IMG/VR virus record: IMGVR_UViG_2547132418_000017
Source of the DNA: a virus
Taxonomy: Duplodnaviria > Heunggongvirae > Uroviricota > Caudoviricetes
DNA: 36,714 nucleotides
Direction: 5' to 3' (one strand)
How positions within the stretch are numbered: position 1 is the stretch's first letter; every line of letters begins with the position of its first letter. This document shows positions 55 to 17,819 of the stretch, one piece after another. Both the position numbers and the translations under genes were made by a program. The notes under the pieces were generated by a model. The model searched no databases, had not been told where the DNA came from, and saw nothing but the letters and a program-made list of their open reading frames with translations.

Positions 55-76
55 CGTTTTAAATGCTTTTAAAACG
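55..76. repeat. AT-rich palindrome CGTTTTAAA-tgct-TTTAAAACG
   Basis: Perfect 9-bp inverted repeat with 4-bp spacer read directly; a longer version of the same palindrome recurs at 17795..17819. Confidence 0.5.
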
Positions 77-172
77 GGCTTTATCCAGTACCCGTTCCCT
101 CTTCTCATTTCTTAGTTTTGATGTGGTTGTTGCTGATTAGTTAGCAGTATGCGCCCCGCCAAAACGAGGCGC

Positions 173-850
173 TCATGCTAATTTTTTGCTTACAGGCTTC
201 GTTTCTTGCTCCGGCGTGGCAACGGTCTGACCACCAGGCGACCCAGCCCGTGCACGAGATTCGATGCGTCGCAAAATCTCTTTGTCAGTTTCTTCATTAC
301 CAGCCAATGCCATGCAAATAGCGTCTTTAAGCGATTCCCTGATGTTTAGGCTTCTGATGGCAGTCTCTTGTTCGTCCAGGTCGCTGTCGGCCTGCATAGC
401 TTGCCTGGTGGGTTGTTGTAAGCGTTCCAAGACTCCTTTGATACCGATGTTGTAAAAAACATCAAGCAAAACATCTAAATCTTGAGCATTCATGCGCTGT
501 AATAGGAGATTTAATTCTGTTCTTTCGGTCGGATTTTGTTGCGGATTATTGTTTTCTGTAGCGGATTTTCCTGAAATTAACCACTCTACGGGAACATTGC
601 ATGCATGAGCCACCAAAGCTGCGCTGTCTATACCTGGGTAGATCTTCCCCTGCACGTACTTTCGTATTGTGGCTTCAGATAACCCACTCAGTTTTGACAG
701 TGTCATGTAATTTAATCCGCTGCCTTCCATAGCTGATTTAAGGCGCTCGCCGAAGCGGATTATATCCATAGCCTCAATAATCCGTTCTTTCTCGGTTTGC
801 TTGCTTGCGGTTTTATCTGCGTAACCGTTTCTTTTTAAAGAGTTTTTCAT
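173..850 (-). CDS. Prophage repressor, N-terminal HTH (XRE/CI-like), 225 aa
   Basis: Leftward ORF divergent from the early operon; N-terminal helix-turn-helix-like segment LSKLSGLSEATIRKYVQGK; not similar to the Mu c repressor sequence as I recall it. Confidence 0.7.
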   Translation of the reverse strand: MKNSLKRNGYADKTASKQTEKERIIEAMDIIRFGERLKSAMEGSGLNYMTLSKLSGLSEATIRKYVQGKIYPGIDSAALVAHACNVPVEWLISGKSATENNNPQQNPTERTELNLLLQRMNAQDLDVLLDVFYNIGIKGVLERLQQPTRQAMQADSDLDEQETAIRSLNIRESLKDAICMALAGNEETDKEILRRIESRARAGSPGGQTVATPEQETKPVSKKLA

Positions 851-864
851 ATTGCACCTGTGGC

Positions 865-917
865 ATACAAAAATCCGTCAAGACAAATACAAAAATCCGT
901 TGACAGCGGATTTTTGT
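865..917 (+). promoter_or_regulatory. Candidate operator: three copies of ACAAAAATCCG (two direct, one inverted)
   Basis: ATACAAAAATCCGT at 865..878 and 887..900; inverted copy CGGATTTTTGT at 907..917; copies 889..899 and 907..917 form a perfect 11-bp inverted repeat with 7-bp spacer. Confidence 0.55.
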
Positions 918-928
918 TTCACTAGGAT
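900..928 (+). promoter_or_regulatory. Candidate early promoter (Pe-like): -35 TTGACA 900..905, 17-bp spacer, -10 TAGGAT 923..928
   Basis: Consensus -35 hexamer sits inside the operator inverted repeat, about 60 bp upstream of the ner start. Confidence 0.5.
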
Positions 929-988
929 TTATCACATCAGATAAATGGTTTTGATTATCTGAATCGATAAATTGGAGAGGATCACACA

Positions 989-1261
989 ATGCAGTTATCG
1001 AGACAAGATCTAACTGACTTGTTTGTTCGTCGCGGACAAGACTGGTCTAGCAAAGCAATTGCAGCCGCCCTTGATAATAAAGGGGTTGATATCACTACGA
1101 TGGAGCGTGTACGCGGCTTAAAACCTGGTGCAATGCGTAACGTGTTTTATCGCCGCGTACCTGCATATGAATCAGCAATTGCAGAAGCAATTGGTGTGGA
1201 ACCGGAAGTTATCTGGCCATCACGTTATCGGAATAAAAATCCGCATAGCAACGCTGCATAG
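989..1261 (+). CDS. ner: Ner-like DNA-binding protein (Mu Ner/Nlp family), 90 aa
   Basis: First gene of early operon; C-terminal PEVIWPSRY matches the conserved Ner motif; SD GGAGAGG 974..980. Confidence 0.85.
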   Translation: MQLSRQDLTDLFVRRGQDWSSKAIAAALDNKGVDITTMERVRGLKPGAMRNVFYRRVPAYESAIAEAIGVEPEVIWPSRYRNKNPHSNAA

Positions 1262-1269
1262 GTGATGTT

Positions 1270-3312
1270 ATGTGGATTACAGCAAAAGAGTGTGCTGGCA
1301 TTGGAGGGCTACCAACACGTGAACACAATGTCAGAGCACGTCTAGATCGTGTAATTGAGAATAAACCTGAATTAAGGCGCAAGCGTGAAGGCACAAAAGC
1401 ATTCGAGTATCACATCGACTGCCTGCCCGCTGAAGCGGAGAAAGTTTTACGTAAGCGCCTGACCCATCAGGTCCTGGAAGATACGCAACTGCCCGCCGTG
1501 GTTGAGCAGAAGGCAGTTAAAAACGTTACCGTTCGCGATGAACTGGAGGTGATGGTCAAATGCCCGGAACTGGCATTACGCGAAGTTCAGGCACTGACTG
1601 ACAAGCAAAAAGCCATCGCAGATGCGCGGATATTGCTGGCTACCGAAGTGCATAAACTGCGTGAATACGCAGGAATGTCCAGGACGGCGGCGATAAAACA
1701 CATCGTTGATGGTATCCGGCAGGAGGCTTTGCCCGAGCGTGTTATTGTGGCAGGTAATACCGCCAATGCCCGACAGGGTAAGCGAACTGGCGTCAGTACA
1801 GGGAGTTTACAGGAATGGTATTCCGCCTGGCTGATGGCGCGCGGTGATGCCAATCAGTTACTGGCGTTACTGGCTCCCGGTCATCATAAGGGGACACCGT
1901 GGGAGCAGGTCTGGTGGTTGAGCGATTTCTTAATGTTCTATCGCTCATGGAAGCGCCCGACCGTTGAATATGCGTATCGCGAGTTTTCAGCCTGGTGGCA
2001 TGAAAAACACGCGAATGATGCGGGAATGCTGGCAGCACTGCCTTCAGTTCATGCAGTAAGACGGGTGTTAAGCAGCGTCCCGGTGATTGTTAAAGAGCGT
2101 TTCCGCTCCACCGGTTCAGCCTGGCGTTCGCTCAATCCCTTTGTGCGGCGCGACTGGACATCATTACCGGTTAATGCGGTATGGGTCGGGGATGGTCACT
2201 GTATGAAAATGACCGCGTTTAACCCCCTGACCGGCAATATTTTCCGGCCAGAAGTAACGCTGGTTATGGATGCGGGACAACGCTTTGTTGTGGGCTGGTC
2301 ACTGTCCCTGTCGGAGAACGTGATAGCCGTTGCTGATGCGTTACGTTACGGCATGGCGCAGCACGGGATACCGCTGGTTTATTACTCCGATAACGGGGGC
2401 GGTGAAAAAAACCGGGTGCTTGATGCCGATATTACCGGGATTCTGCCCCGGCTGGGTGTGGAACATCACACGGGGATACCAGGTAACCCGCAGGGGCGCG
2501 GGGTGATTGAAAGGCTTAATAAGGAAATTCCCCGGGATGTGGCCCTGAGTTTCCAGACGTACTGCTCAAAGGGAGCAGACAAGGAAACCGTAATGATGCA
2601 GCAACGGATTATGCAGTCAGCCATTAAGGCCACCCACAAAGGGAAAGAACTGACAAAACGGCAGGTTAAGGCGAGGGATGAAATCCCCACCTTTGAGCAG
2701 CTGATGGCAGCTATAGAGCTGGAGGTCAGACGCTATAACAACCGACCACACAGCAGCCTTCCCCGCAAAGAGGATGGCGAATATTACAGCCCGGCAGCGT
2801 ATCGCCGGAAACTGATAAAAGAGCAGAATGTTGAAATTGATTTCCTGTCGCCGGAAGAACTGCATGAAATGTTCAGACCGGAAGTGACGCGCAAAACATT
2901 TCGCGGGGAAATTCAGTTATTCAACAATATTTATTACTCGTATGAGCTGGCCGCAGAGCACGGGAATGAAGTCAGGGTCAGTTACGATATTCATGATGCA
3001 AACAGCGTCATTGTCCGGCGGGCTGATGGCTCTTATATCTGCGATGCCATCTGGAACGGTAACAAGGTTGATGCCTTCGCTAAACCAGTTATCGAACAAA
3101 AACTGGAGAAACGCGTCAGAGGCCGCATTGCACGGGCCACGCAGAAAATCGAAGAGGCTAAACGCGAGCTTACCCCGGCTATTACGCAGAAACCTGACTT
3201 TAATTTTGGATTTGGTCTGGAGCGCCCGGAGAAAAAGGATAAAGAAGAACTTTATTTATTTGCATCTGAACGCGAACGCAATTTAAAGAAAAACGGCACA
3301 AACAACCGTTAA
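1270..3312 (+). CDS. Mu-type DDE transposase A, 680 aa
   Basis: Size and position after ner; catalytic-core-like motifs VWVGDGHCM and VYYSDNGGGE. Confidence 0.9.
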   Translation: MWITAKECAGIGGLPTREHNVRARLDRVIENKPELRRKREGTKAFEYHIDCLPAEAEKVLRKRLTHQVLEDTQLPAVVEQKAVKNVTVRDELEVMVKCPELALREVQALTDKQKAIADARILLATEVHKLREYAGMSRTAAIKHIVDGIRQEALPERVIVAGNTANARQGKRTGVSTGSLQEWYSAWLMARGDANQLLALLAPGHHKGTPWEQVWWLSDFLMFYRSWKRPTVEYAYREFSAWWHEKHANDAGMLAALPSVHAVRRVLSSVPVIVKERFRSTGSAWRSLNPFVRRDWTSLPVNAVWVGDGHCMKMTAFNPLTGNIFRPEVTLVMDAGQRFVVGWSLSLSENVIAVADALRYGMAQHGIPLVYYSDNGGGEKNRVLDADITGILPRLGVEHHTGIPGNPQGRGVIERLNKEIPRDVALSFQTYCSKGADKETVMMQQRIMQSAIKATHKGKELTKRQVKARDEIPTFEQLMAAIELEVRRYNNRPHSSLPRKEDGEYYSPAAYRRKLIKEQNVEIDFLSPEELHEMFRPEVTRKTFRGEIQLFNNIYYSYELAAEHGNEVRVSYDIHDANSVIVRRADGSYICDAIWNGNKVDAFAKPVIEQKLEKRVRGRIARATQKIEEAKRELTPAITQKPDFNFGFGLERPEKKDKEELYLFASERERNLKKNGTNNR

Positions 3313-3330
3313 TTTAAAAGGTATTTAATT

Positions 3331-4224
3331 ATGAGTTTAATTACGCAATTAAATGACGTAATGGCCCGTCGCGGCTATACGCAGACCCACGTCGCCCGTG
3401 CTATTGGTCGTAGCAGCGCCGTTATCAACCAGTATTTACAGGGTAAATATCAGGGCGATATGGCTGATATTGAAGAACGCATTTCTGCCTTCGTGACCCG
3501 TGAGCGGGAAAAGGAAAACAGCCGCCGTATTAAAGCAAAGTTTGTGACCACCGGTATGGCTGCCAAAGGACTGGAGGTGCTGGCCTACGCTCACCTGGAA
3601 TGTGAAATCTGTGTGCTGTATGGCGCGGCAGGTCTTGGCAAAACAATGATTCTGCGTGAATACGCCTCCAGAAACCGGGATGCGGTCCTGATTGAGGCTG
3701 ACCCGGGCTATACAGCCAGGACACTGCTTGAGGAGTTGTGCCGCCAGCTGGGGGTAAAGGTTCGCGGCAACATTCACGAACTGATTGATGCCTGTGTGCG
3801 CGAACTGCGTGATTCCGGTCGTCTGCTGATGGTGGACGAGGCTGAACTGCTCCCCTATCGCGCACTGGAGGTTCTGCGCCGTCTGCATGACAAAGCGGGT
3901 ATCGGGGTTGTCCTGGCGGGTATGCCTCGTCTTCTGATTAATCTCAAGGGGCGTCGTGGTGAATTTGCGCAGTTATACAGCCGCGTGGCGCTGGCGCTTA
4001 ACCTGGGCGACATGCTGGCGCAGGAAGATTTTAACCAGATAGCCACCGGGCTGATGCCGGAAGCAGCAGAACGGGAAATCAGCGAGGCGCTTTACGCACG
4101 CTCGCTGGGTAATGCCCGCCGCCTGTTCAAACTGGCGCGTGGTGTGTACCGGATTTGTGATATCAGCGATGCGCCGGTCAGTGTGCAGGCCATTGATAAA
4201 TTCGCAGAAATGTTAATTCACTGA
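3331..4224 (+). CDS. Mu-type transposition ATPase B, 297 aa
   Basis: Walker A GAAGLGKT, Walker B LLMVDEAE, N-terminal HTH-like segment; immediately downstream of transposase A. Confidence 0.9.
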   Translation: MSLITQLNDVMARRGYTQTHVARAIGRSSAVINQYLQGKYQGDMADIEERISAFVTREREKENSRRIKAKFVTTGMAAKGLEVLAYAHLECEICVLYGAAGLGKTMILREYASRNRDAVLIEADPGYTARTLLEELCRQLGVKVRGNIHELIDACVRELRDSGRLLMVDEAELLPYRALEVLRRLHDKAGIGVVLAGMPRLLINLKGRRGEFAQLYSRVALALNLGDMLAQEDFNQIATGLMPEAAEREISEALYARSLGNARRLFKLARGVYRICDISDAPVSVQAIDKFAEMLIH

Positions 4225-4463
4225 TGGAGAACAAGATGATGGACAAGCAGACCATTAACGCCGTCCGTTCCCGTGCCCGTGTGGCCATCCACACCACCGG
4301 CGGTCGCGTAACTGGGCAACATCACCGTTTACCTGTGGTTTATGCCTGCCCGCCCGTGGGCGGCCCTGTATGGCCGGTAACGGAAATCATCCAGACATTC
4401 AGCGGCCTGCGCCGCGTGGTGAAAACGTCCTGTATCGACGGCTGCACCGTCGTATGGCAATAA
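4224..4463 (+). CDS. Hypothetical protein, 79 aa
   Basis: ATG overlaps the transposase B stop (TGATGG), suggesting translational coupling; no recognisable family. Confidence 0.45.
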   Translation: MENKMMDKQTINAVRSRARVAIHTTGGRVTGQHHRLPVVYACPPVGGPVWPVTEIIQTFSGLRRVVKTSCIDGCTVVWQ

Positions 4464-4475
4464 GAGGAAATCAGA

Positions 4476-4691
4476 ATGGCGGTTAAGTTAGAAGTAATTA
4501 TCTATACCGATGAAAAAGGCTGTGTTTTAACCCAGACCACGGGGAGTTATTCGAAGGACGGAGCTTCCGAAAAGGAGTTTCAGGTGGCAACAAGATTACA
4601 TGATGCTATCAAGGAAACGCTCAGAAATGACTATAACGGCGTGAATCTTTTTTCTGAAAATGTTGCGCCTCGCGCACATAACACACATTAA
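4476..4691 (+). CDS. Hypothetical protein, 71 aa
   Basis: ORF with SD AGAGGAAA upstream; no recognisable family. Confidence 0.45.
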   Translation: MAVKLEVIIYTDEKGCVLTQTTGSYSKDGASEKEFQVATRLHDAIKETLRNDYNGVNLFSENVAPRAHNTH

Positions 4692-4720
4692 TCTGTAAAT
4701 ATCACTGAGGTAATTTAATT

Positions 4721-5365
4721 ATGACTACTGAAAATAAAGTTAAGCAATACACGAAAACTCAAGCGCCTGAAGGTTACTGGGTGGATGCCCGTGGCGTAAT
4801 GACACCTGAAAGCCTTATCAAAGATATTGACCGCGACCGCGAGCAGCTGGTCGGTGAGCTTGTGGAGATGGTGATTACTGCCTCCGCCTCACTGCGGGAA
4901 CTGAAACTGCGTGCGTTTGGTGATATCCAGGCATTTATTGACCTGTCGGCAGAGAAATACGGTGCTGTGAAAGGCGGCAAAAAAGGGAATATCACGCTTT
5001 ACAGCTTTGACGGGCGTTACAAGATTCAGCGCGCCATGCAGGACCGTATCGCGTTTGATGAACGCATTCAGACCGCGAAGGCGCTGATTGACGACTGTCT
5101 GGCTGACTGGACGGAAGGTGCGCGCCCTGAAATTAAAGCCATCATCAGTGAGGCATTCAGCACGGACAAGGAAGGCAACATCAACACCGGGCGCGTTCTG
5201 GCCCTGCGTCGCCTCGAAATTGAGGACGAACGCTGGAATAACGCCATGTCGCTGATTGGTGAAGCCGTCCAGGTGATTGGCAGCAAGAGCTATATTCGTG
5301 TGTATGAGCGCGTTGGTGATTCTGATGAATACCGCGCAATCCCTCTTGATATTGCAGGGGTTTAA
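4721..5365 (+). CDS. DUF3164-like protein, 214 aa
   Basis: Resembles the DUF3164 family common in Mu-like prophages (recalled, not searched); sits where Mu carries gam. Confidence 0.6.
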   Translation: MTTENKVKQYTKTQAPEGYWVDARGVMTPESLIKDIDRDREQLVGELVEMVITASASLRELKLRAFGDIQAFIDLSAEKYGAVKGGKKGNITLYSFDGRYKIQRAMQDRIAFDERIQTAKALIDDCLADWTEGARPEIKAIISEAFSTDKEGNINTGRVLALRRLEIEDERWNNAMSLIGEAVQVIGSKSYIRVYERVGDSDEYRAIPLDIAGV

Positions 5366-5366
5366 T

Positions 5367-5600
5367 ATGCATCAGAATATCAAAGAGTACAGAGCCGGAA
5401 ATAGTTGCGCGGCGTATTCGCTGGGCGCGTCCAGAGCAGAACAACGCGGCGATTATGACGAGGCAGAAAAACTGTGGCGCAAGGCAGCGCAAAGCCCGTG
5501 TAGCACCCTGCGCCGCACCTGGGCTGAACATCGTGCGGAGTTCTGCGCTAACGCTCACCTGAAGGGATGGAGGCCACGCCATGAATGCGAAGAACTTTAA
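5367..5600 (+). CDS. Hypothetical protein, 77 aa
   Basis: ATG at 5367 one nt after the upstream stop, SD AGGGG 5356..5360; the longer form from 5277 overlaps the previous gene and is less likely. Confidence 0.4.
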   Translation: MHQNIKEYRAGNSCAAYSLGASRAEQRGDYDEAEKLWRKAAQSPCSTLRRTWAEHRAEFCANAHLKGWRPRHECEEL

Positions 5601-5772
5601 TAAGTTATATCCGCTTGGTACTCGTTTCATGCACATTGCACATCAGGCGGTGCGTGGTGGGCGGGTGGTAAAAACTGTTGCACCGGCCAGAGATTTTAAA
5701 TGTGGTTGTGTGATTGAAATTAATGTCGAGCCTTATTTCGTAAAAGTCGAAACACTGAAAGCACCGCATTAA
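5581..5772 (+). CDS. Hypothetical protein, 63 aa
   Basis: ORF overlapping the end of the previous gene; followed by the AT-rich spacer and hairpin. Confidence 0.35.
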   Translation: MNAKNFNKLYPLGTRFMHIAHQAVRGGRVVKTVAPARDFKCGCVIEINVEPYFVKVETLKAPH

Positions 5773-5803
5773 TTTAATTTGTTTTTAATTGTTATTTAAA
5801 ACA

Positions 5804-5841
5804 GGCGTAACCCCGCCGGGGCTGGCTTACGCCTGAATCTG
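5804..5841 (+). repeat. Hairpin-plus-RBS cassette, copy 1
   Basis: GGCGTAA (5804..5810) / TTACGCC (5827..5833) stem around a 16-nt GC-rich loop, then TGAATCTG and SD GGAGG; 38 nt identical to 6429..6466. Confidence 0.7.
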
Positions 5842-5853
5842 GAGGATTTGTAT

Positions 5854-6399
5854 ATGAAAGATAAAGTCTGGGATTTTATTGTTGCTCCTGAAGGTTTTGC
5901 CACCCGTTCATCTGAGAAGTTAACCAATGTAACGTTATGGGCATCATCATTGCTGGGCCATCTGGGAGCACCTGCCGATTTTATGTATGTGGTACTTGAT
6001 GCGCAGATTGCCGGAAATGCTGTGGCCAGTAATGGGGCTTATATTCAGGGGGATTTGTTCGCCATGATGGCGAATGACACAGCAGCGCTGTATATCGCCA
6101 CACGGAACATACTGACAAGAATATCCATGCTGTCTGACTGTAAGGATATGGAAGACCTCGCATACATCCTTGAAGATGATTTGCTCACTATTTCAGGTGT
6201 GCAGGAATCCCTCTCGCGTCAGTTGCGGTTTATTGAACTGATGGAGTCATATAAAGATAAGCCTGATTTTTTTCAGATTCGATTCAGCGGGATGGAACTG
6301 CTGGATAAATATTATCCGCTGGATTCGATTGCCCGTGATGTGAAGGCGTTCGTTAAGTCTGTTGGCCGCCATTACTGGAAAGCTGAACGTCGTAGTTAA
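5854..6399 (+). CDS. Hypothetical protein, 181 aa
   Basis: ATG 5854 with SD GGAGG 5841..5845; no recognisable family. Confidence 0.55.
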   Translation: MKDKVWDFIVAPEGFATRSSEKLTNVTLWASSLLGHLGAPADFMYVVLDAQIAGNAVASNGAYIQGDLFAMMANDTAALYIATRNILTRISMLSDCKDMEDLAYILEDDLLTISGVQESLSRQLRFIELMESYKDKPDFFQIRFSGMELLDKYYPLDSIARDVKAFVKSVGRHYWKAERRS

Positions 6400-6428
6400 T
6401 AAGTCTGTTTTTAATTTTATTTGTATAT

Positions 6429-6466
6429 GGCGTAACCCCGCCGGGGCTGGCTTACGCCTGAATCTG
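6429..6466 (+). repeat. Hairpin-plus-RBS cassette, copy 2
   Basis: Identical 38-nt core to 5804..5841, again directly upstream of a start codon (6478). Confidence 0.7.
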
Positions 6467-6477
6467 AGGGATTCATT

Positions 6478-7194: not shown

Positions 7195-7196
7195 CG

Positions 7197-7833: not shown

Positions 7834-7834
7834 G

Positions 7835-8205: not shown

Positions 8206-8208
8206 AAT

Positions 8209-9564: not shown

Positions 9565-9591
9565 TGGTCTGTACAGGCGATCATGTATGGC

Positions 9592-9626: not shown

Positions 9627-10094
9627 ATGCAGACCTTCAGTGAAACAGATCTTCGCGATGCACAGGCACTGCTACCCGATTCCGTACAGCAACTGATTAG
9701 CGTGATTGGCTTCCCCGCCCTGACCCGGTTGATTTGTTCTTTTGGTGGTGTGACGTTAAGTGGTAAAACCGGCGCACACGCCGAACGCACCGGCGGTGTC
9801 CATGCCCTGTTACATGACGTGCTGACCGAAGACGAAATCAACAAACTGATCCGCTTTCTTGGCGGTGCACCGTTTTACATTCCCCGTTGCGATCATGCGT
9901 TACGTGCCCTGCGTAACACCCGTTTTATGGCTGATTTACAGCAGCATGTAAAAGGCGGATGCTCACACCGGCAGGCGCTGGCACTGCTCTGTCCCCGTTA
10001 CGGCATTTCAGACCGGTACGCATGGCAGCTGATACACCGACGACAAAAACAGACTTCGCTGAAAAGCCCCACCCAGGTGGGGCTTTTTGATTAA
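9627..10094 (+). CDS. mor: Mor/C-family transcriptional activator, 155 aa
   Basis: FYIPRCDHALRALRNTRF and C-terminal HTH-like RYGISDRYAWQLI resemble Mu Mor/C; located before the lysis and late genes. Confidence 0.75.
   Translation: MQTFSETDLRDAQALLPDSVQQLISVIGFPALTRLICSFGGVTLSGKTGAHAERTGGVHALLHDVLTEDEINKLIRFLGGAPFYIPRCDHALRALRNTRFMADLQQHVKGGCSHRQALALLCPRYGISDRYAWQLIHRRQKQTSLKSPTQVGLFD
10065..10089 (+). terminator. Rho-independent terminator overlapping the 3' end of the Mor-like gene
   Basis: AGCCCCACC / GGTGGGGCT stem followed by TTTTT; lies within the last codons of the ORF. Confidence 0.65.
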
Positions 10095-10121
10095 TGGGCC
10101 TCAGAAAAAAGGAGACACGAA

Positions 10122-10409: not shown

Positions 10410-10596
10410 CCCATCCAGATAATCAACCTGCCGGGGGTGCTGAACTCCCCCAGCAGTACCCACCACACCAGACCGTTTACCCTGTCCACTCAGACCACAA
10501 GGCACCTTAAGGGATAGCGCCCTGCAAAAGGCTTTTGTGCCTTTGACAGGGTGTTATTTACGGGCCGTCAGTGGCTCAGATTTACAGGAGAAACTC

Positions 10597-11275: not shown

Positions 11276-11804
11276 CATTTTTGATGAAGTCCTGGGCAAA
11301 GAAGGCGGTTACGTCAATCACCCGGACGATAAGGGCGGTCCGACCAAATGGGGCATTACGGAAAAAGTTGCCCGCGCCCACGGATACCGTGGCGATATGC
11401 GCAATTTAACCCGCGAACAGGCGCTGGACATCCTTGAAGCTGATTACTGGTATGGCCCGCGATTTGACCAGGTTGCGGCATTATCCCCTGATATTGCCGC
11501 AGAGCTGTGTGATACCGGTGTGAATATGGGGCCATCTGTGGCGTCAAGAATGCTTCAGCGCTGGCTGAATGTGTTCAATCTGCGCGGCAGGATGTATCCC
11601 GATATGGATGCAGACGGACGCATCGGGCCTCGCACCATCAGTGCATTGCGCGCCTTCCTGAATAATCGCGGTCAGGACGGTGAACGGGTGATGCTGACGG
11701 CCCTGAACTGCACGCAGGGGGACTGCTATCTGGAACTGGCAGAGAAACGCGAGGCTAACGAATCGTTTGTTTATGGCTGGCTGAAGGAGCGCGTGGCGGT
11801 ATGA
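11259..11804 (+). CDS. Endolysin, GH108-type lysozyme with peptidoglycan-binding region, 181 aa
   Basis: N-terminal GGYVNHPDDKGGPTKWGIT matches the GH108 signature as I recall it. Confidence 0.8.
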   Translation: MKSKDDIFDEVLGKEGGYVNHPDDKGGPTKWGITEKVARAHGYRGDMRNLTREQALDILEADYWYGPRFDQVAALSPDIAAELCDTGVNMGPSVASRMLQRWLNVFNLRGRMYPDMDADGRIGPRTISALRAFLNNRGQDGERVMLTALNCTQGDCYLELAEKREANESFVYGWLKERVAV

Positions 11805-11983
11805 CGCGTCAGTACTGGACCCACAGAACGCCACGTAAAGCCGCGCGCTGTGTTCTGGCCCTGTTTCTGGTGATGTTGCTTCCGGTGGGATGCACAGACA
11901 TTAACAGAGCGGGCCAGCTGTTTGACGCGGCGGCGCAGGTCTGCCGGATTATTGACGGTATCCGGCAGTGTTCGCAGAACTGA
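11801..11983 (+). CDS. Small lipoprotein-like protein (possible outer-membrane spanin), 60 aa
   Basis: ATGA overlap with endolysin stop; hydrophobic N-terminus ending LLPVGC (imperfect lipobox); no partner inner-membrane spanin identified. Confidence 0.35.
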   Translation: MTRQYWTHRTPRKAARCVLALFLVMLLPVGCTDINRAGQLFDAAAQVCRIIDGIRQCSQN

Positions 11984-12002
11984 TTTTTTGAGGTCTGACA
12001 TA

Positions 12003-12209
12003 GTGAGCATTATCAGATTTACAGAATACAGAGGTTCAGGAGGTGCTGGCGCTGTCATGGTGCTCGCTGAACGCATCACCCATTTTTACCGTCAGTACGG
12101 TACACATGATGGCACGGTCATTGAACTGGATACCGGGAAAAACGTGTATGTTCTTGAAAATCCCGACGAAGTTAAATGTCTGATTGAACAGGATCAGAAG
12201 GACACTTAA
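12003..12209 (+). CDS. Hypothetical small protein (start uncertain: GTG 12003 or ATG 12055)
   Basis: ORF between the lysis genes and small terminase; SD-like GAGG before the GTG. Confidence 0.3.
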   Translation: MSIIRFTEYRGSGGAGAVMVLAERITHFYRQYGTHDGTVIELDTGKNVYVLENPDEVKCLIEQDQKDT

Positions 12210-12709
12210 TGGCGTGGTCACAGGATATCAGGGACAAAGTCCGTAACGGGTACATCTTTGACCAGCTTCCGCTGGATATCGTCGCCATGAAGTACGCCGT
12301 GCCGCACGACACCGCGCGGCGCTGGAAAACGCAGGCAATGAAGAACGGCGACGACTGGGACAAGCTGCGGGCCGCGCACGCGCTCGCCGGTGACGGGCTG
12401 GAAAGTGTCGCCCGCACCGTGCTTATCAGTCTGGTGGTGAAGTGTCAGACGACGCTTGAGCGGCTGAACCAGACCCCGGACATCCCGCCGCAGGAGTCCG
12501 TCGAACTGCTGGCGAGTCTGTCTGACAGTCTCAGTAAGGCGGTGGCCAGCAGCAAAAAAATCCTGCCGGAAACCGACCGGCTCGCCACGGCACTGGAAGT
12601 GGTGCAGCGGCTCGGCGCGTTCATCAAGGAGCGTCACCCGGCACAGTATGCCCCGTTTCTTGAGGTGCTCGAAGGCTTCGCTAAAGAGCTTGAGGATAAT
12701 TTCAGTTAA
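12209..12709 (+). CDS. Terminase small subunit (Mu gp27-like), 166 aa
   Basis: Position immediately upstream of large terminase; resembles the Mu-like small terminase (DUF1804) family as recalled. Confidence 0.6.
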   Translation: MAWSQDIRDKVRNGYIFDQLPLDIVAMKYAVPHDTARRWKTQAMKNGDDWDKLRAAHALAGDGLESVARTVLISLVVKCQTTLERLNQTPDIPPQESVELLASLSDSLSKAVASSKKILPETDRLATALEVVQRLGAFIKERHPAQYAPFLEVLEGFAKELEDNFS

Positions 12710-12716
12710 CCACAGC

Positions 12717-12734
12717 GGCCCGGTTTTCCGGGCC
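12717..12734 (+). other. Perfect hairpin GGCCCGG-TTTT-CCGGGCC between the two terminase genes
   Basis: 7-bp perfect stem and 4-nt loop, 8 nt after the small terminase stop; followed by a weakly T-rich tract. Confidence 0.5.
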
Positions 12735-12743
12735 GTCTGATAT

Positions 12744-14402
12744 TTGTATACCAGGTGTGACGTGGCAAAACGTAAACTTTCCATTAAAGAGTTTCAGAGA
12801 AGCTTACAGGAATATATCGCCAACCTCCGCCAGACCATTGAGGCTGAATGTCTGGGGTTCGATGTTAACCCGCAGGCCACACAGGCCCGCCGGGCGGCAG
12901 TCTGCGACCCGGTGACGGGCTACGATTATTTTGTCGAAAACTATTTCCCGCACTACGTCCGCAACCCGGCAAAAAGTGAGCTGCATAAATACCTGTTCAG
13001 CCGTCTGCCACAGGTTGTGGCAAGCCCTGACCCGGAGAACGACGCCATCGCCGCGCCCCGTGGTGAAGCAAAATCCACGCTGGTGACGCAGCTGTTTACC
13101 CTGTGGACCATTATCCGGGCCATTAAACATTACCCGGTCATCATTATGGACAGTATCGACCAGGCTTATCCGATGCTGGAAGCCATCAAGGCTGAACTGG
13201 AATTTAACCCCCGTTTAAAAAACGATTTCCCGGAAGTGTGCGGTCAGGGGCGCGTCTGGCGTATGGGGACCATTGTCACGGCTAACAATATCAAGGTGAC
13301 CGTTGCCGGTAGTGGTAAAAAGCTGCGTGGTCTGCGCCACGGTCCGTACCGTCCTGACCTGGTCATCCTCGACGACATCGAGAACGACGAGATGGTGCGT
13401 AACCCGGAGCAGCGCGACAAGCTGCATGACTGGCTCACTAAAGCCGTGATGCCGCTGGGTGAGGCTGGCGGTAAAACCGATATTATTTATATCGGGACCA
13501 TCCTGCATTACGACTCCGTACTGTCGCGCACGCTGAATAACCCGATGTGGAAAACGGCCCGCTTTAAGGCAGTTATTCAGTGGCCTGCCAATATGAAGCT
13601 GTGGGACGAGTGGGAAGAACTCATCCGCAACAAACAGCCGGAAGCAGCAGAGGCACTTTACCGACAGAACGAAGCTGACATGCTCGCCGGGTCGGTGGTG
13701 TCATGGGCGGCGCGTCCCCTGCTGGCACTGATGAAAATCCGTGTCCGTGACGGTCATGACACCTTTGATTCTGAATACCAGAACGACCCGGTCAGCGGTG
13801 AAGATGCGCTGTTTGCGGGCTGCATTAAGTTCTGGGTTAACCGTCTTGATGAATGGGTGTTTTATGGTGCGGTTGACCCCAGTCTCGGGAAGAAAAACAA
13901 AAACCGTGACCCGTCGGCCATTCTCGTGGGGGGCTTTAACCGCTTTACCGGCATTCTGGATGTGGTTGAAGCCGATATCCGCCGACGACTGCCAAACAAA
14001 CTTATCGAGGACGTGATTAAGTATCAGCGGGAATATCACTGCCTGTGCTGGTCGTTTGAGTCCGTTCAGTTTCAGGAGTTTCTGCGTACCGTGCTGGTTG
14101 AGCGTTCGGCGGCGCTGGGCGTTCCGGTTCCGGCGCTGCCGGTCATCCCGCTGGAGGATAAGGCGCTGCGTATCGAATCCCTTCAGCCGCATATGGCCAA
14201 CGGCCTGATTCGTATCAGTCACACACATCAGACACTGATTGACCAGCTGCGCCACTACCCCAAAGCCGACCACGATGATGGCCCGGACTGTCTGCACATG
14301 CTGTGGACGCTGGCGGTATCGCGTAGCGCAAAATTTCAGATACACACCCCACGCAGCACCGGGCGTGACCGTGGCGGGCGTTTTGGTTCAGGAGGATGGT
14401 AA
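12744..14402 (+). CDS. Terminase large subunit (Mu gp28-like)
   Basis: Large ORF with ATPase-like PRGEAKST segment and C-terminal nuclease-like region; start is non-ATG (TTG 12744 or GTG 12762). Confidence 0.8.
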   Translation: MYTRCDVAKRKLSIKEFQRSLQEYIANLRQTIEAECLGFDVNPQATQARRAAVCDPVTGYDYFVENYFPHYVRNPAKSELHKYLFSRLPQVVASPDPENDAIAAPRGEAKSTLVTQLFTLWTIIRAIKHYPVIIMDSIDQAYPMLEAIKAELEFNPRLKNDFPEVCGQGRVWRMGTIVTANNIKVTVAGSGKKLRGLRHGPYRPDLVILDDIENDEMVRNPEQRDKLHDWLTKAVMPLGEAGGKTDIIYIGTILHYDSVLSRTLNNPMWKTARFKAVIQWPANMKLWDEWEELIRNKQPEAAEALYRQNEADMLAGSVVSWAARPLLALMKIRVRDGHDTFDSEYQNDPVSGEDALFAGCIKFWVNRLDEWVFYGAVDPSLGKKNKNRDPSAILVGGFNRFTGILDVVEADIRRRLPNKLIEDVIKYQREYHCLCWSFESVQFQEFLRTVLVERSAALGVPVPALPVIPLEDKALRIESLQPHMANGLIRISHTHQTLIDQLRHYPKADHDDGPDCLHMLWTLAVSRSAKFQIHTPRSTGRDRGGRFGSGGW

Positions 14403-14405
14403 TTA

Positions 14406-16001
14406 ATGGCACAGCTTGTTGATATTTGCGGACGCCCGCTGAAACGTGAGGCACTCAAAACCACGCAGTCGGTCAGAGTGGCGGAACGGCTGCGCATTTA
14501 TCCAGACCACCCGTCGCGTGGTCTGAACATCAGAAAACTGCCGCGCATTCTGGAAGCTGCCGAACGCGGTTATCTTCCGGCGCAGGCGATGCTGTTTGCG
14601 GATATGGAAGAGCGTGATGGTCATCTGTTCGCCGAGATGGAAAAGCGCAAAAAAGCGTTGCTGACGCTGGACTGGTCGGTGGAGCCGCCCCGCAATGCCT
14701 CGAAGGCAGAAAAGGAGCTGACTGCCGCCGTGGATGAGTGGCTGCACGGCATCCCGGACATGGAGGACATCATCCTCAACGGGATGACCAGTGTCGGTTA
14801 TGGCTTCAGTTGTCAGGAAATCAGCTGGGCGTTCGTGGATAAAACGTGGTTACCGGATGCGGTGACGCTGCGCCCGCATAACTGGTTTATTACCCTGCCG
14901 GAACACAATGACGAACTCCGGCTGGATGACGGCAACCGTGGGGAAGATGGTAAGGACGGCTCTGCACTGTGGCCGTTCGGCTGGCTGGTTCATCGTTACA
15001 ACGCCAGGTCGGGATTTCTGGGTTCATCCGGCCTGTTCCGCGTACTGGTCTGGCCGTATCTGTTTAAAAACTTCGCGCTGCGTGATATGGCGGAGTTTCT
15101 GGAGATTTACGGCCTTCCGGCGCGCATTGCGTACTATGCACAGGGCACCAGTGACGAGGACCGGGACAACATTCTTGAGGCGCTGGTCAATCTGGGTCAT
15201 GAAGCGGTGGCAGCCCTGCCGCAGGGTAACGAAATTGAGTTCAAGGAGGCCGCGTCCGGCGGACCGGAGGCGTTCATGTCGATGGTGGAATGGGCAGAGC
15301 GCACCACCTCAAAAGTGATTCTGGGCAGTACGCTGACCAGCCAGGCCGACGGTAAAACCTCCACCAACGCACTGGGTAATGTCCATAACGAGGTCAGGCA
15401 CGACATTCTGGCCGCCGATGCGCGCCAGCTGTCCGGCATGTTCAGCAGCCTGATACAGATGATGTCCAGCCTCAACGGCTGGCAGGATATCCCGCCACGC
15501 CGTCTGCCGCGACTGGTGTTTGATGTGCAGCAGGAAGCCGACATTAAGGGCGTGGCGGAAGCCGTCAGCGTGCTGGTCAACAATGTGGGAATGAAGGATA
15601 TCCCGGTGTCGTGGGTACGCAAAAAAACCGGTATCCCCACCCCGAAAGACGGCGAAGAGGTACTGGTGCCGGTGGCACAGCGTCTCCCTGTGCAGGCGGG
15701 CCTCAGCCAGTTGCGTGAGCGGCTGAATGTCGTCGCACTCAGTCAGCAGGACAACGGGGAGGACGACCCGGCACAACGCGCCATCGACCGGGCAGAACTT
15801 CCGGCAGAGGCCATCGCGCAGGGGATGAACGAACTGGTGGCCCCGCTGGTGCAGGCCATACAGGAAGGCCGGGATGCAGACGAGGCTATGAACGTACTGG
15901 CGGAAGCATGGCCGGAACTGCCGGATGAAACGCTGCGGCAGTTGCTGACACAGGCATTCTTTGTGGCGGATATCTGGGGGCGACTGAATGCCGAAAGCTG
16001 A
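14406..16001 (+). CDS. Portal protein (Mu gp29-like), 531 aa
   Basis: Size and position after large terminase; resembles the Mu-like portal family (DUF935) as recalled. Confidence 0.8.
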   Translation: MAQLVDICGRPLKREALKTTQSVRVAERLRIYPDHPSRGLNIRKLPRILEAAERGYLPAQAMLFADMEERDGHLFAEMEKRKKALLTLDWSVEPPRNASKAEKELTAAVDEWLHGIPDMEDIILNGMTSVGYGFSCQEISWAFVDKTWLPDAVTLRPHNWFITLPEHNDELRLDDGNRGEDGKDGSALWPFGWLVHRYNARSGFLGSSGLFRVLVWPYLFKNFALRDMAEFLEIYGLPARIAYYAQGTSDEDRDNILEALVNLGHEAVAALPQGNEIEFKEAASGGPEAFMSMVEWAERTTSKVILGSTLTSQADGKTSTNALGNVHNEVRHDILAADARQLSGMFSSLIQMMSSLNGWQDIPPRRLPRLVFDVQQEADIKGVAEAVSVLVNNVGMKDIPVSWVRKKTGIPTPKDGEEVLVPVAQRLPVQAGLSQLRERLNVVALSQQDNGEDDPAQRAIDRAELPAEAIAQGMNELVAPLVQAIQEGRDADEAMNVLAEAWPELPDETLRQLLTQAFFVADIWGRLNAES

Positions 16002-17154
16002 CGATGTTGACCTGGGGTATGCGTACACCCTGAAACCGGAAGAAGCGATTAAGTATTTCGAAAGCAAGGGATACGTTATCGGCTTCCGCTGGCACGATGT
16101 GAAGGACATCGCCAGTGCCCGGGCGTTCACGGTGGCGGGCGTGCTGAAACTGGATGTGCTGAAGGATATCCGTGATGGACTGACGGCGGCACTGGCTGAC
16201 GGCGGGACGTTCCGGGAGTTTGCTGCACAACTGGAACCACTGCTGGAATCAAAAGGCTGGCTGGGTAAAAAACTGATTGTGGACGAGGACACCGGCGAAC
16301 TGCATGGCAGGCAGCTGACGCCGCGCCGGTTGCGTACGCTATTCGATACCAATATTCAGTCGTCATATAACGCCGGGCGTTATCAGCAACAGATGGCGAA
16401 CGTGGCTGACCGGCCTTATTTTGAGCGCGTGGCGGTGATGGACCTTCACACGCGCCCGAAACACGCCGCCCTGAACGGTTTTACCGCCCGGGCGGATGAC
16501 CCTGTCTGGGAGTATTTCTACGCGCCGGACGGATACGGATGCCGCTGCCGTATCCGTGCGCGTTCGGCGTCTGATGTGGAGAAATACGGCCTGACGGTGC
16601 AGAGCAGCGAGGGGCGACTGGTTGAGGTTGAACAGGAATATGGCCAGCCGGGCCAGACCATCAGAACGATGGGTCTGAAGATGCCGGATGGCTCCGTGTA
16701 TACCGCCGACCCGGGCTTCGGATTTAATCCCGGTCGGGTGGCATGGCAGCCGGAACTGGAAAAATATGATTACCGTAGCGCCCGCCAGTATGTCACCGGC
16801 ACCCTGACCGGGCCGGATTTTGCCCGGGGACTGGCGAACGTCAGCAAACTGGATGCGCGCCAGCGATATCCGCTGGCCATCCGTTCACCGGAACAGGTCG
16901 CTGCCACGGGCGCTGCACGGCAGACGGTAAACCTGACGGCTGACGTCATGAAGCGCCTCAGTGCAACAGACACGCCCCCGACCGCCGCCGACTATGTGCT
17001 GATGCAGCAGACCATCGAACGGGCGGAGCATGTCACGCAGGACGGCAACGCGTGGCGGTATGCGTTACAGTCAGGCGACCGCTGGTCGGTGGTGACGGTT
17101 GAGGATGACGTGCTGACAGACTGGGTTATGCAGGACACACCGGAGGCATCATGA
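15988..17154 (+). CDS. Head morphogenesis protein (Mu F / gp30-like), 388 aa
   Basis: Position after portal with overlapping start; similar to Mu F family as recalled. Confidence 0.75.
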   Translation: MPKADDVDLGYAYTLKPEEAIKYFESKGYVIGFRWHDVKDIASARAFTVAGVLKLDVLKDIRDGLTAALADGGTFREFAAQLEPLLESKGWLGKKLIVDEDTGELHGRQLTPRRLRTLFDTNIQSSYNAGRYQQQMANVADRPYFERVAVMDLHTRPKHAALNGFTARADDPVWEYFYAPDGYGCRCRIRARSASDVEKYGLTVQSSEGRLVEVEQEYGQPGQTIRTMGLKMPDGSVYTADPGFGFNPGRVAWQPELEKYDYRSARQYVTGTLTGPDFARGLANVSKLDARQRYPLAIRSPEQVAATGAARQTVNLTADVMKRLSATDTPPTAADYVLMQQTIERAEHVTQDGNAWRYALQSGDRWSVVTVEDDVLTDWVMQDTPEAS

Positions 17155-17702
17155 GCAGCGGTAAACTGGATATTAAGATTGATTTAAGCGCGTATAACAC
17201 CACGCTGGGGAAACTGATTCGTTCCGTGAAGGACCGGCGCGACCTGATGACAGCGCTTGCGGGTTCCATGCTGGATGCGGTTGAGACTAACCTGGAACAA
17301 CAGGGTCGCCCGAAATGGATGGGCTGGAGTCCCTCCTATGCGAAGCGACGCGGCCCCGGGCAAATCCTTCAGAAGTCCGGGCGACTGGCCGCCAGTATCC
17401 GCTCTGCGGTTAACAATAACGAGGCCACGGTCGGGACAAACGTCCGTTATGCCCGTATCCACAACGAAGGCGGCGAAATCCGCCATCAGGCACGGACGCA
17501 GAACCTGTATTTTAAACAGTACAAAAACGGCAGCGTCAGCACCCGCTTTGTGAAAAAGCGCAACAGTAATTTTGTACAGAGCGCAACGGTCGGAGCGTAT
17601 ACGGTCAACATGCCCGCGCGTCCCTTCCTTCAGCTTGTGCAGGACGACATCGACGAGCTGGAGAACACCGCAAACCGCTATTTTGCGCGTGTGATTGACT
17701 GA
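17151..17702 (+). CDS. Virion morphogenesis protein (Mu G-like), 183 aa
   Basis: ATGA overlap with F-like gene; size and position as Mu G. Confidence 0.65.
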   Translation: MSSGKLDIKIDLSAYNTTLGKLIRSVKDRRDLMTALAGSMLDAVETNLEQQGRPKWMGWSPSYAKRRGPGQILQKSGRLAASIRSAVNNNEATVGTNVRYARIHNEGGEIRHQARTQNLYFKQYKNGSVSTRFVKKRNSNFVQSATVGAYTVNMPARPFLQLVQDDIDELENTANRYFARVID

Positions 17703-17794
17703 ATGGCCAGAAACGCGCTGTAATCGTCTTTGACGACATAAACGCCTCACGGATGAGGCATTACAGCACCGCACCCCATAAATGTCGTCAGAAT

Positions 17795-17819
17795 CGTTTT
17801 TAAAAGGGTTTTAAAAACG
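17795..17819. repeat. AT-rich palindrome CGTTTTTAAAA-GGG-TTTTAAAAACG
   Basis: Perfect 11-bp inverted repeat with 3-bp spacer in the 155-bp gap upstream of the protease/scaffold gene; same motif as 55..76. Confidence 0.6.

Follow-up and report, generated by a model that had tools for sequence, protein, structure and literature searches.

What is the role of two copies of an AT-rich palindrome in a Mu-like prophage, one near its left end and the other near its centre? Both lie in a 36,714-nucleotide stretch of DNA (the window) and were compared here with their counterparts in related prophages and in Mu. A preliminary description had regarded them as a binding site shared by one dimeric factor, possibly the Mor/C activator or a host nucleoid protein. 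The pair of palindromes was confirmed as an observation, and its interpretation in terms of a binding factor was partly supported. The reading that we favour, at slightly better than even probability, is that of two separate architectural elements: the central copy (site 2) as part of a strong gyrase site (SGS) and the left-end copy (site 1) as a phased bend. What was shown are position, conservation, homology to the Mu SGS, helical phasing and the presence of a distinct activator box; gyrase action at site 2 and bending at site 1 are predictions. The features are listed in Table 1.

Table 1. Coordinates of the dyads and neighbouring features in the window
Feature	Position	Strand	Remarks
Innermost (L3-like) transposase end-binding repeat	7..32	+	core TCTGGAC 16-22
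Extended site 1 element	49..87		GATC 50-53, two T/A blocks, third T block
Site 1 dyad, CGTTTTAAA-TGCT-TTTAAAACG	55..76		position-locked across 24 left ends
CI-type (HTH_3) repressor gene	173..850	-	
Mor-family activator gene	9627..10094	+	only one among the ORFs scanned
Second late-promoter box	10435..10461	+	upstream of holin/lysis genes; without AT dyad upstream
G-like virion morphogenesis gene (Phage_tail_S)	17151..17702	+	left neighbour of the G-I gap
Predicted gyrase G-segment	17742..17777		cleavage-site matrix, alignment with Mu
Predicted right arm, to wrap round a GyrA C-terminal domain	17778..17840		phased AT blocks
Site 2 dyad, CGTTTTTAAAA-GGG-TTTTAAAAACG	17795..17819		alignment of 7 lineages and IMG/VR loci
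Late-promoter box, GGGTGCTGAACACCCTCCACAGTACCC	17856..17882	+	37 bp downstream of site 2
Mu I-like protease/scaffold gene	17912..19027	+	right neighbour of the G-I gap; start per RefSeq of relatives
Third, partial box, GTGCTGAACACCCTC	29789..29803	+	54-bp gap before gp46-like baseplate gene

Position and distinctness of the two dyads

The letters of both dyads were exactly as first noted. Site 1 lies beyond the 3' end of the repressor gene, as described, 97 nt past the stop codon. Its placement near the prophage left end holds in that it falls at approximately +185 to +206; the true end (TGTGGGG...) is absent from the window, which begins about 130 bp inside the prophage. Site 2 had been assigned to a 155-bp gap before an I gene starting at 17858. 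According to the RefSeq annotation of relatives, the most likely I start is ATG 17912 rather than GTG 17858, so that the gap between the G-like and I-like genes (G-I gap) measures 209 bp. The cores of the two sites are alike, as had been observed; T4A4 being its own reverse complement, however, little can be learned from their inverted orientation, and the blocks of both sites can equally be described as direct repeats with a spacing of 10-12 bp. The likeness reaches past the dyads (TTTTAAAACGGGCTTTATCC at site 1 and TTTTAAAAACGGTTTTATTTCC at site 2).

Motif counts showed two matches to CGTTTTAAA (0.29 expected) and four to TTTTAAAA (0.54 expected). Exactly two pairs of T3+A3+ blocks separated by at most 14 nt were present in the 36.7 kb, at 57/67 and 17797/17809, and none of 300 dinucleotide-preserving shuffles, which served as the null, contained two or more. 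The same two block pairs, and no further ones, were present in the complete relative prophage of E. coli AH19B041 (37,529 bp). The window's lineage was present in 55 of 5,426 E. coli genomes, E2348/69 among them. No close DNA relatives of the window were found in the phage collection, and an Rfam search of the window gave no matches. The two dyads occupy conserved, functionally meaningful non-coding positions, in line with the preliminary description.

Site 2 and the strong gyrase site of Mu

Site 2 lies in the G-I gap near the prophage midpoint, the position of a central SGS. In AH19B041, where halves of tkt lie on both sides of the prophage, the start of the dyad is 34 bp away from the exact centre of the 37,529 bp and the predicted cut (pos0 18762) falls 3 bp from the midpoint at 18765; for comparison, the Mu gyrase cut is at 48.7% of the Mu genome. 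A 32-nt site 2 sequence was identical in all 20 E. coli-type IMG/VR loci, and the block was kept between G and I in Buttiauxella, Intestinirhabdus, Trabulsiella, Photorhabdus, Xenorhabdus and Klebsiella-phage relatives, despite I protein identities of only 46-66%. Alignment of seven lineages, including Mu, revealed the columns TTTTTAAA..GG..TT.A....G.T to be invariant in all seven.

In the Mu GenBank record, the mapped gyrase cut falls within the G-I gap at 17879/80, and downstream of it come a terminator and then the late promoter PI. The G-I gap of the window has matching neighbour genes and is likewise central in a transposable prophage, with a late promoter downstream, as had been anticipated for this gap. 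[quoted passage not shown] The CCGCAC core aligned between the two, within CAGC(A)CCGCAC in the window and CAGCCGCAC in Mu, and both right arms carry TTTTTAAA-type blocks, the main one lying some 40 bp away from the cleavage dyad. The sites differ in that the first AT block of Mu, TTTTTTAAAA at +19, is replaced by a weaker ATAAAT in the window, and in that the two adjacent blocks of the window form a perfect dyad, whereas those of Mu are 21 and 12 bp apart and non-palindromic; gyrase cleavage is mapped in Mu and predicted in the window. In a Mu-related lineage (TUM9757) the equivalent arm is the direct repeat CGTTTTTGAAGGGGTTTTGAAGGGGG, which shows that phasing is conserved, not palindromy. 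At the DNA level, the G-I gap of the window's lineage had no detectable similarity to the Mu-type gap, itself found in a separate search of 44 genomes.

The right arm of the SGS is described in the literature as essential and as carrying phased bending signals. According to a review, the centre of at least one Mu-like prophage (E. coli O157:H7 Sakai) contains an SGS able to replace that of Mu. SGS sequences of Mu-like prophages such as Sp18 of Sakai are the subject of Oram & Pato (2004, J Bacteriol 186:4575); as that review describes it, the principle of a central gyrase site in Mu relatives is the same, and the window's lineage seems not to be covered by that work.

Predicted gyrase binding and cleavage at site 2

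Cleavage positions were predicted with a matrix that we built from 197 experimental E. coli cleavage sites and the W3110 sequence; S/W-only and mixed versions performed worse. Within the Mu gap, the matrix found the true cut (position 17876) exactly. In the window gap, its sole local maximum above 5, at pos0 17759, gave about 17759-17762 (4-bp stagger) as the likeliest cut, 41 bp left of the T5A4 block. The matrix dyad lay 39-41 bp left of the T5A3-4 block in the window and in the relative loci L007, L008, L009, L010 and L014, and 40 bp left of it in Mu. Next to the predicted stagger, CAGCACCGCAC (17764-17774) is similar to Mu CAGCCGCAC, whose first base is the last one of the Mu AATC stagger (17876-17879). 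Genome-wide, the Mu SGS ranked only as peak 55 and the window site as peak 123; the ranking being too noisy at this scale, the matrix was used for the local register only, and it supports the register, not site strength.

The general 130-bp gyrase motif has arms that alternate AT and GC at approximately 10.75 bp, with AT blocks near +19, +40, +51 and +62 (Sutormin et al. 2019, PMC6379681), and the gyrase literature gives an AT/GC periodicity of 10.75 bp and a 49-bp wrap. In the predicted right arm of the window, AT blocks fall at about +20 (ATAAAT), +41, +52, +64 and +76 from the predicted dyad with one TpA step per 11-12 bp, a block period that differs from the ~10.75 bp of the motif. Pattern matching was performed by GC-normalised correlation with the published 133-bp gyrase consensus, a proxy distinct from the published matrix. 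The window G-I gap was the second-best match in the 36.7 kb, and the true Mu SGS was likewise peak 2 (of 36.6k positions); among 6-kb relative loci, the gaps of L007-L010 ranked as peaks 1-2 and that of L014 as peak 4. The gap of Klebsiella phage ST405-OXA48phi1.1 scored poorly in both the pattern correlation and the matrix. The two proxies differ in register, with the dyad at 17742.5 by W/S pattern correlation and at 17760.5 by the matrix. A raw dot-product scan with the S/W gyrase consensus pattern was dropped after failing the Mu positive control, because GC content dominated.

On the favoured reading, host DNA gyrase would bind the site 2 region, with the cleaved G-segment centred near 17760, and the DNA from about 17778 to 17840, palindrome included, would wrap round a GyrA C-terminal domain with its AT blocks facing inward. 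Processive supercoiling from the centre would then draw the ~37.5-kb prophage into a plectonemic loop, and this loop may join the left and right ends for transpososome assembly, as proposed for Mu. Gyrase binding and cleavage at site 2, and their effect on replication, are predictions from sequence. The earlier suggestion of a host nucleoid protein holds here in part, since the best candidate for site 2 is DNA gyrase, a DNA-binding protein of the host though not a classical nucleoid protein.

Alternatively, site 2 could serve primarily to end the upstream late (lysis-to-G) transcript as an intrinsic terminator that resembles site 1 only incidentally; we consider this unlikely. The RNA of site 2 forms an AU-rich hairpin followed by GGUUUUAUUU, with a fold of -12.2 kcal/mol (z -4.3; none of 200 shuffles as good) and a U-rich tail, but its stem has only two G-C pairs, and a scan for terminators called neither dyad. 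[quoted passage not shown] Against this, Buttiauxella has the palindrome without a U tail plus a canonical terminator upstream, and Intestinirhabdus, Trabulsiella, Photorhabdus and Xenorhabdus keep the block without the hairpin (z approximately -0.2 to -0.4). As the hairpin or U tail is missing in these relatives, termination could be a secondary, lineage-specific use and not the conserved function.

Site 1 at the prophage left end

Two T4A3-4 blocks, whose TpA steps are separated by 10 bp, make up site 1. Across 24 divergent left ends, TTTAAA occurred 31 times at +171 to +200 and only twice elsewhere in the first 300 bp, and the core was kept while the flanking 25 bp diverged. Two registers, one helical turn apart, were found among these left ends: the TpA steps lie either 30 and 41 or 41 and 51 bp from the L3 core, those of the window being at approximately 41 and 51 bp, on the same helical face. 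In the extended element, GATC corresponds to the frequent TGATCGCG prefix in relatives, and the third T block, CTTTATCC, follows 12 bp further on. ATTCTGG(A/G)C repeats were present in attL and attR of relatives, and no transposase end repeat of this type occurs within the dyads. The attR of the one relative examined (AH19B041) contained no T/A pair and nothing equivalent to site 1.

On the favoured reading, site 1 is a pair or triplet of TTTAAA-type blocks at fixed distance and helical phase from the innermost left-end transposase repeat, and most likely serves to bend or wrap the DNA in a set direction within the left-end nucleoprotein complex. Both sites are built from one kind of unit, T3-5A3-5 blocks with flexible TpA steps about once per helical turn. 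Hagerman is said to have found in 1986 that phased T4A4 is not intrinsically curved, in which case a bend at site 1 must be protein-induced. The putative bending role resembles that of the HU-bent L1-L2 spacer and the accessory bends of the Mu left end, in that an attL segment other than a transposase site is concerned and keeps its position and helical phase with respect to the end-binding repeats. It differs in that site 1 is internal to L3 instead of lying between L1 and L2, and in that its sequence (TTTAAA twice) is conserved, whereas HU binding is not sequence-specific. At the analogous place, Mu has phased A-tracts (cttcAAAAAAcgttcAAAAccg, 203-226), for which we know of no described function; none was found for the left-end TTTAAA pair either.

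Other roles for site 1 were considered and rejected. As a second gyrase cleavage site it was a poor candidate: the best matrix positions in 15 left ends were scattered and low, and the window-type left end scored only 0.3. As a terminator of the repressor gene it was rejected because the hairpins were weak (no better than shuffles, z about -0.9) and unconserved. Beside site 1, CAGTACCC (86-93) had three matches against 0.69 expected; as a half-site of the late box it was discarded, being absent from E. coli relatives and wrongly spaced.

Candidate links between the two sites

The proposal that one dimeric protein serves both sites would have it read a CG-clamped dyad, CGTTT(T)AAA-N3-5-TTTAAACG, at the two positions and so link the left end to the centre. 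Candidates would be a phage protein, such as the N-terminal enhancer-binding (I-alpha-type) domain of the transposase, or some host factor. The window has CG-clamped half-sites at both positions; they were also found in L077, L082, L091 and L097 (site 1) and in L008/L127, L053, L126 and L128 (site 2). Perfect CG-clamped dyads recurred in the window, Buttiauxella and a Klebsiella phage for site 2 and in several lineages for site 1, a symmetry that gyrase wrapping alone does not need and that counts against the two-element reading. Photorhabdus-type gaps contained CGTTTAAATCGTTTTTAAACG, which resembles a site-1-type dyad. The transposase has an HTH_Tnp_Mu_1 domain at residues 6-141, the repressor being of a different (HTH_3) type, and the I-alpha/repressor sites of Mu (CTTTTYAGTAA) also consist of a T-run followed by an A-rich part. 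However, the spacer length is not constant (3, 4 or 5 nt), many lineages have a degenerate right arm (TTTAACAGGGG, TTTAAATGGGG), the clamps are missing from site 1 of E. coli relatives (CCTTTTAAAAGATTTTAAAACC), and the Mu-related TUM9757 lineage has direct TTTTGAAGGGG repeats as the equivalent blocks. The motif is too low in complexity for covariation between the sites to be tested, and the homologous Mu region is a demonstrated gyrase site. With the geometry of the Mu SGS at site 2 and not at site 1, we assign a common dimeric factor a low probability.

We regard as rather improbable a further reading, in which the left-end and central dyads are two ends of one architectural system handled by the same wrapping or bridging machinery. 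That machinery could be a sequence-specific phage factor, for instance the enhancer-binding domain of the transposase, or gyrase itself, wrapping the DNA without cleaving it. If so, the left end would be anchored to the central gyrase site as the prophage domain forms, which would give a sequence-level reason why, in Mu, the domain forms only with the SGS and the L end, whereas the R end is not needed.

Late-promoter boxes and the activator

The three late-promoter gaps of the window share a GC-rich box, GTGCTGAACNCCCYC, that is distinct from the AT dyads and is probably the Mor/C-type activator site. It takes the form GTGCTGAAC(A/T)CCC(T/C)C at 10437-10451, 17858-17872 and 29789-29803; the 27-nt box pattern had two matches against 0 expected, and conservation of CTGAACCCC upstream of I extended to Aquitalea and Pseudomonas relatives. 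One Mor-family gene together with three promoter-like gaps sharing a conserved box parallels the Mor/C sites of Mu, the difference being that the GC-rich box is separate from the AT dyads.

It is very unlikely that the dyads bind the Mor/C-type late activator, as had been proposed, or IHF or Fis aiding the I promoter and acting at the left end, even though both are conserved and AT-rich and a late promoter lies downstream of site 2. The GC-rich box is common to all three late-promoter gaps, two of which have no dyad (none lies upstream of the third box), so a dyad precedes the box in one of three gaps; in relatives, palindrome and box are separated by anything between about 41 and about 95 nt, and site 1 adjoins no late promoter. 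No match to the IHF (at most one mismatch), Fis or DnaA consensus (WATCAANNNNTTR, GNNYRNNWNNYRNNC, TTWTNCACA) was found in 1-130 or 17740-17870, which speaks against the IHF/Fis suggestion at either site, and a sigma-70 promoter scan gave no call at either dyad. That both dyads are functionless chance products of AT-rich intergenic DNA, conceivable insofar as the motif is low in complexity and self-complementary T(n)A(n) readily yields palindromes, is effectively refuted by the conservation data, with both sites kept at fixed positions across lineages with diverged flanks, and is opposed by the two block pairs observed against 0.02 expected.

Implications

Strong central gyrase sites are among the features that make transposable phages efficient, and the Mu SGS is a standard substrate for studies of gyrase mechanism and structure. 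The two-element reading would extend the SGS, by sequence, to an enterobacterial Mu-like prophage lineage only distantly related to Mu, with hosts including E. coli (EPEC E2348/69 among them), Buttiauxella, Trabulsiella, Photorhabdus and Xenorhabdus, and with Klebsiella phages as further members. It offers a compact conserved signature, CGTTTTTAAA(A/C)GGG(G)TTTAA, located some 40 bp away from the predicted dyad, which could be used for annotating such sites and for testing which arm features gyrase reads. Within attL, the TTTAAA pair is sharply locked in position and provides a small, directly testable lead on left-end architecture. For annotation, AT dyads of this kind should not be labelled activator sites, the likely activator box being the different motif defined here.

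Prophage organization and ends

The window is a Mu-like transposable prophage, the features of which are listed in the table below. Close relatives were found in approximately 55 of 5,426 complete E. coli genomes, E2348/69 among them. Alignment with four independently inserted relatives placed the true left end (TGTGGGGTAGTGATCAATTCTGGAC...) approximately 130 bp to the left of position 1; thus, the dyad near the left end (site 1) lies approximately 185–206 bp inside the prophage, just inside a third transposase-type repeat, ATTCTGG(A/G)C, at positions 16–22. AH19B041, a complete E. coli relative prophage, is 37,529 bp long and flanked by two halves of tkt. The window itself stops short of both prophage ends: the left side is without approximately 130 bp of attL, carrying the L1 and L2 repeats, and the right end (36714) falls within a tail-fibre-assembly gene, with attR outside the window.

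Features of the prophage, in listed order, with the two dyads and the late-promoter box copies
Feature	Position	Strand	Sequence or placement
CI-type repressor	173–850	minus	
Ner-like gene			next after the CI-type repressor
Transposase with Mu-type N- and C-terminal domains, then B-like ATPase			after the Ner-like gene
GemA, then single Mor-family gene	Mor-family 9627–10094		
Holin, terminase, portal			after the Mor-family gene
F-, G- and I-like genes, then head and tail genes			after the portal
Site 1 (left-end dyad)	55–76		CGTTTTAAA-TGCT-TTTAAAACG
Site 2 (dyad in the gap between G- and I-like genes)	17795–17819		CGTTTTTAAAA-GGG-TTTTAAAAACG
Late-promoter box copy, gap before lysis genes	10435–10461		GGGTGCTGAACTCCCCCAGCAGTACCC
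Late-promoter box copy, gap before I	17856–17882		GGGTGCTGAACACCCTCCACAGTACCC
Late-promoter box copy, gap before baseplate gene	29789–29803		GTGCTGAACACCCTC

Between terL and the DUF1804 (small terminase-like) gene, E. coli relatives have a 741-bp gene for a DNA methyltransferase (14249–14989 in relative locus L005), and at this position the window has only a 34-bp gap (12709–12744). The early control region (866–917) contains three copies of ACAAAAATCCGT, two direct and the third inverted, which are likely operators; the −35 hexamer of the sole sigma-70-like promoter called (900–928) is surrounded by the 11-bp inverted repeat that the third copy forms.

Two dyads with shared T/A blocks

Both dyads were read from the window sequence exactly where the preliminary description had located them. 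A motif search of the window returned two matches to CGTTTTAAA (0.29 expected) and four to TTTTAAAA (0.54 expected). Pairs of T3+A3+ blocks separated by at most 14 nt occurred exactly twice, at sites 1 and 2, against an expectation of 0.02, and none of 300 dinucleotide-preserving shuffles contained two; chance in AT-rich sequence does not account for the dyads. The two sites had been described as sharing one core in inverted orientation: the shared T/A blocks stand, whereas the inversion adds nothing because T4A4 is its own reverse complement, and the blocks of both dyads are equally describable as direct repeats with a spacing of 10–12 bp. Comparison of the left ends and G-I gaps (the intergenic DNA between the G-like and I-like genes) of related prophages showed that both elements are conserved.

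Site 2 and the strong gyrase site of Mu

In the Mu GenBank record, the G-I gap contains a gyrase cut at 17879/80, beyond which come a predicted terminator and the promoter PI; the sequence to the right of the cut is cagccgcacagATTTTTTAAAACGcgccacgggATTTTTAAACCggTATTTAACgg. According to reviews and recent structural work, the right arm of this strong gyrase site (SGS) is essential, contains phased bending signals and wraps around a GyrA C-terminal domain, and one review states that the central site of the Mu-like prophage of E. coli O157:H7 Sakai is able to replace the Mu SGS.

Alignment of the gap from G-stop to I-start in the window, five enterobacterial relatives and Mu revealed one invariant block, TTTTTAAA..GG..TT.A....G.T, corresponding to window 17797–17821 and Mu 17913–17937, with I protein identity to that of the window at 53–66% in the relatives and approximately 31% in Mu. 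The same alignment pairs the Mu core CAGCCGCAC with CAGCACCGCAC in the window (17764–17774), and the local alignment score between Mu and the window was equalled by 5 of 1000 shuffles. A Klebsiella phage also has the block, as do 31 IMG/VR gaps; all 20 of its E. coli-type copies share the same 32 nt. In E. coli E2348/69, the G-I gap (NC_011601.1, around 2,735,049–2,735,279) is 94% identical to that of the window. A Mu-related E. coli lineage has the direct repeat CGTTTTTGAAGGGGTTTTGAAGGGGG in its place, so what is conserved is the phased T-run/GGG pattern and not the palindrome. In AH19B041, the site 2 dyad starts 34 bp from the exact prophage midpoint. Judged by its central position in the G-I gap, its sequence homology and its predicted geometry, site 2 belongs most naturally with the Mu-type central strong gyrase sites, as a putative member of a type defined biochemically by preferential cleavage and genetically by a need for the site in replication; for the most part, the analysis recovers an already known type of element from a new lineage.

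Two proxies for the gyrase motif were applied, each with Mu as positive control. The first measured GC-normalised correlation with the 133-bp consensus of Sutormin et al. (2019, PMC6379681), taken as an AT/GC pattern; with their own matrix, these authors report a top or near-top rank (score 14.3) for the Mu site. The correlation ranked the true Mu site as peak 2 of 36.6k positions and the G-I gap of the window also as peak 2 (dyad at 17742.5); the gaps of five 6-kb relative loci ranked 1, 2, 1, 1 and 4, and the Klebsiella phage gap failed. For the second, a symmetrised matrix was derived from 197 E. coli W3110 sites of quinolone-induced cleavage; 159 of these have G at position 0 and 153 have C at position 3, which confirmed the matrix register. 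Genome-wide, the matrix was too noisy to carry any claim on site strength, with the Mu control at peak 55 and the window site at peak 123. Within the Mu gap it found the true cut exactly (position 0 = 17876, score 7.6), and in the G-I gap of the window it gave a single maximum at position 0 = 17759, with a score of 7.2. In all seven lineages, the distance from the matrix dyad rightward to the TpA step in the T5A3–4 block was 39–41 bp, and the cut predicted in AH19B041 was 3 bp from the prophage midpoint. Since the two proxies disagree on register by approximately two helical turns (17742.5 by pattern correlation, 17760.5 by the matrix), the exact cut in the window is a prediction.

In the E. 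coli lineage, which has an insertion interrupting the terminator just past G, site 2 may serve secondarily as a terminator. In the window, its RNA fold (−12.2 kcal/mol, z −4.3) is followed by a U-rich stretch, and in Mu a hairpin with a similar tail also overlaps the right arm of the SGS. Three findings speak against termination being the conserved role: Buttiauxella retains the palindrome but lacks the U tail, and a canonical terminator follows its G gene immediately; in four other relatives the block persists and no hairpin forms; and the terminator scan called none at site 2. One specific factor might also bind both dyads, in keeping with the recurrence of CG-clamped dyads and with a transposase domain of enhancer-binding type that has no assigned sites; this reading is less economical than assigning site 2 to gyrase.

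In relatives, G is followed immediately by a simple terminator (AAACGCGCTG...CAGCGCGTTTTT). At 17712–17772, adjoining the predicted gyrase cleavage site, the window has a compound stem, CTGTAAT...ATTACAG, without a T-run, around two small hairpins (one being GCCTCA-cgga-TGAGGC, 17744–17759), which looks like an insertion into the old post-G terminator.

A separate late-promoter box

A GC-rich box is common to three gaps that precede late operons, ahead of the lysis genes, I and a baseplate gene, with the core GTGCTGAAC(A/T)CCC(T/C)C. The 27-nt box pattern matched twice in the window against 0 expected; both extended copies end in CAGTACCC, which forms an imperfect dyad with GGGTGCTG within the box, and CTGAACCCC is retained upstream of I as far as Aquitalea and Pseudomonas relatives. 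The single Mor-family activator probably binds this box, which would define three late promoters. The AT-rich dyad occurs in only one of these gaps, that before I, and its distance from the box ranges from 41 to approximately 95 nt in relatives; the suggestion that the dyad is a Mor/C site is therefore not upheld.

Another copy of CAGTACCC at 86–93, to the right of site 1 (three window matches, 0.69 expected), was dropped as a late-box half; it is not conserved in E. coli relatives, has no box 5' half and is probably coincidental. For the I-like gene, the longest ORF opens with GTG 17858, within the box, and the ATG equivalent to 17912, the start in RefSeq relatives, appears more plausible.

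The left-end element

Among close relatives, the site 1 core GTTTTAAAtgcTTTTAAAA is retained, and the 25 bp on each side have diverged. The CG clamps are not kept, relatives having TG... or CCTTTTAAAAGATTTTAAAACC. An IMG/VR scan for the terminal motif yielded 30 left ends, 24 of which diverge from one another. Within the first 300 bp of the 24, TTTAAA occurred 31 times at +171 to +200 and only twice elsewhere; 21 had at least one TTTAA at +171 to +200, and 15 had two copies 9–13 nt apart. The TTTAAA copies fall in two registers one helical turn apart (+175/+186 and +186/+196), with TpA steps 30/41 or 41/51 bp from the core of L3, the innermost transposase end-binding repeat; a frequent form in these ends is TGATCGCG-TTTAAAC-N3–4-TTTTAAACG. 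Mu has phased A-tracts at the analogous place. In one relative, AH19B041, attR showed no site 1 equivalent.

As RNA, site 1 folds no better than shuffles, and the promoter scan called none there. The proposal of a host nucleoid protein was not supported at site 1, which has no consensus match for IHF, Fis or DnaA. Gyrase matrix scores were scattered and low over 15 left ends (0.3 for the window-type end). With the hairpin, IHF/Fis/DnaA, promoter and cleavage readings having failed, we read site 1 as a putative bend or wrap point, induced by a protein and phased with the transposase sites of the left end. No named counterpart was found, and the element is a modest new lead.

A GATC (Dam site) at 50–53 stands immediately ahead of the first T/A block in site 1 and is similarly placed in many lineages (L076, L091, L096 and L100 among the relative loci), often inside TGATCGCG; a methylation-sensitive role is conceivable. 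In attL of E. coli 160-11H1 (L003; alignment A1, columns 240–281), the site 1 region is tandemly duplicated over 21 bp (TTTTAAAAGATTTTAAAACTCGTTTAAAAGATTCTAAAG), which creates two extra T/A blocks, in phase. Klebsiella phage Kp4852-3 (L058) has an extra perfect TTTTTAAAAA at 121–130, between the L2- and L3-like repeats, as well as a site 1-type pair at 185–201.
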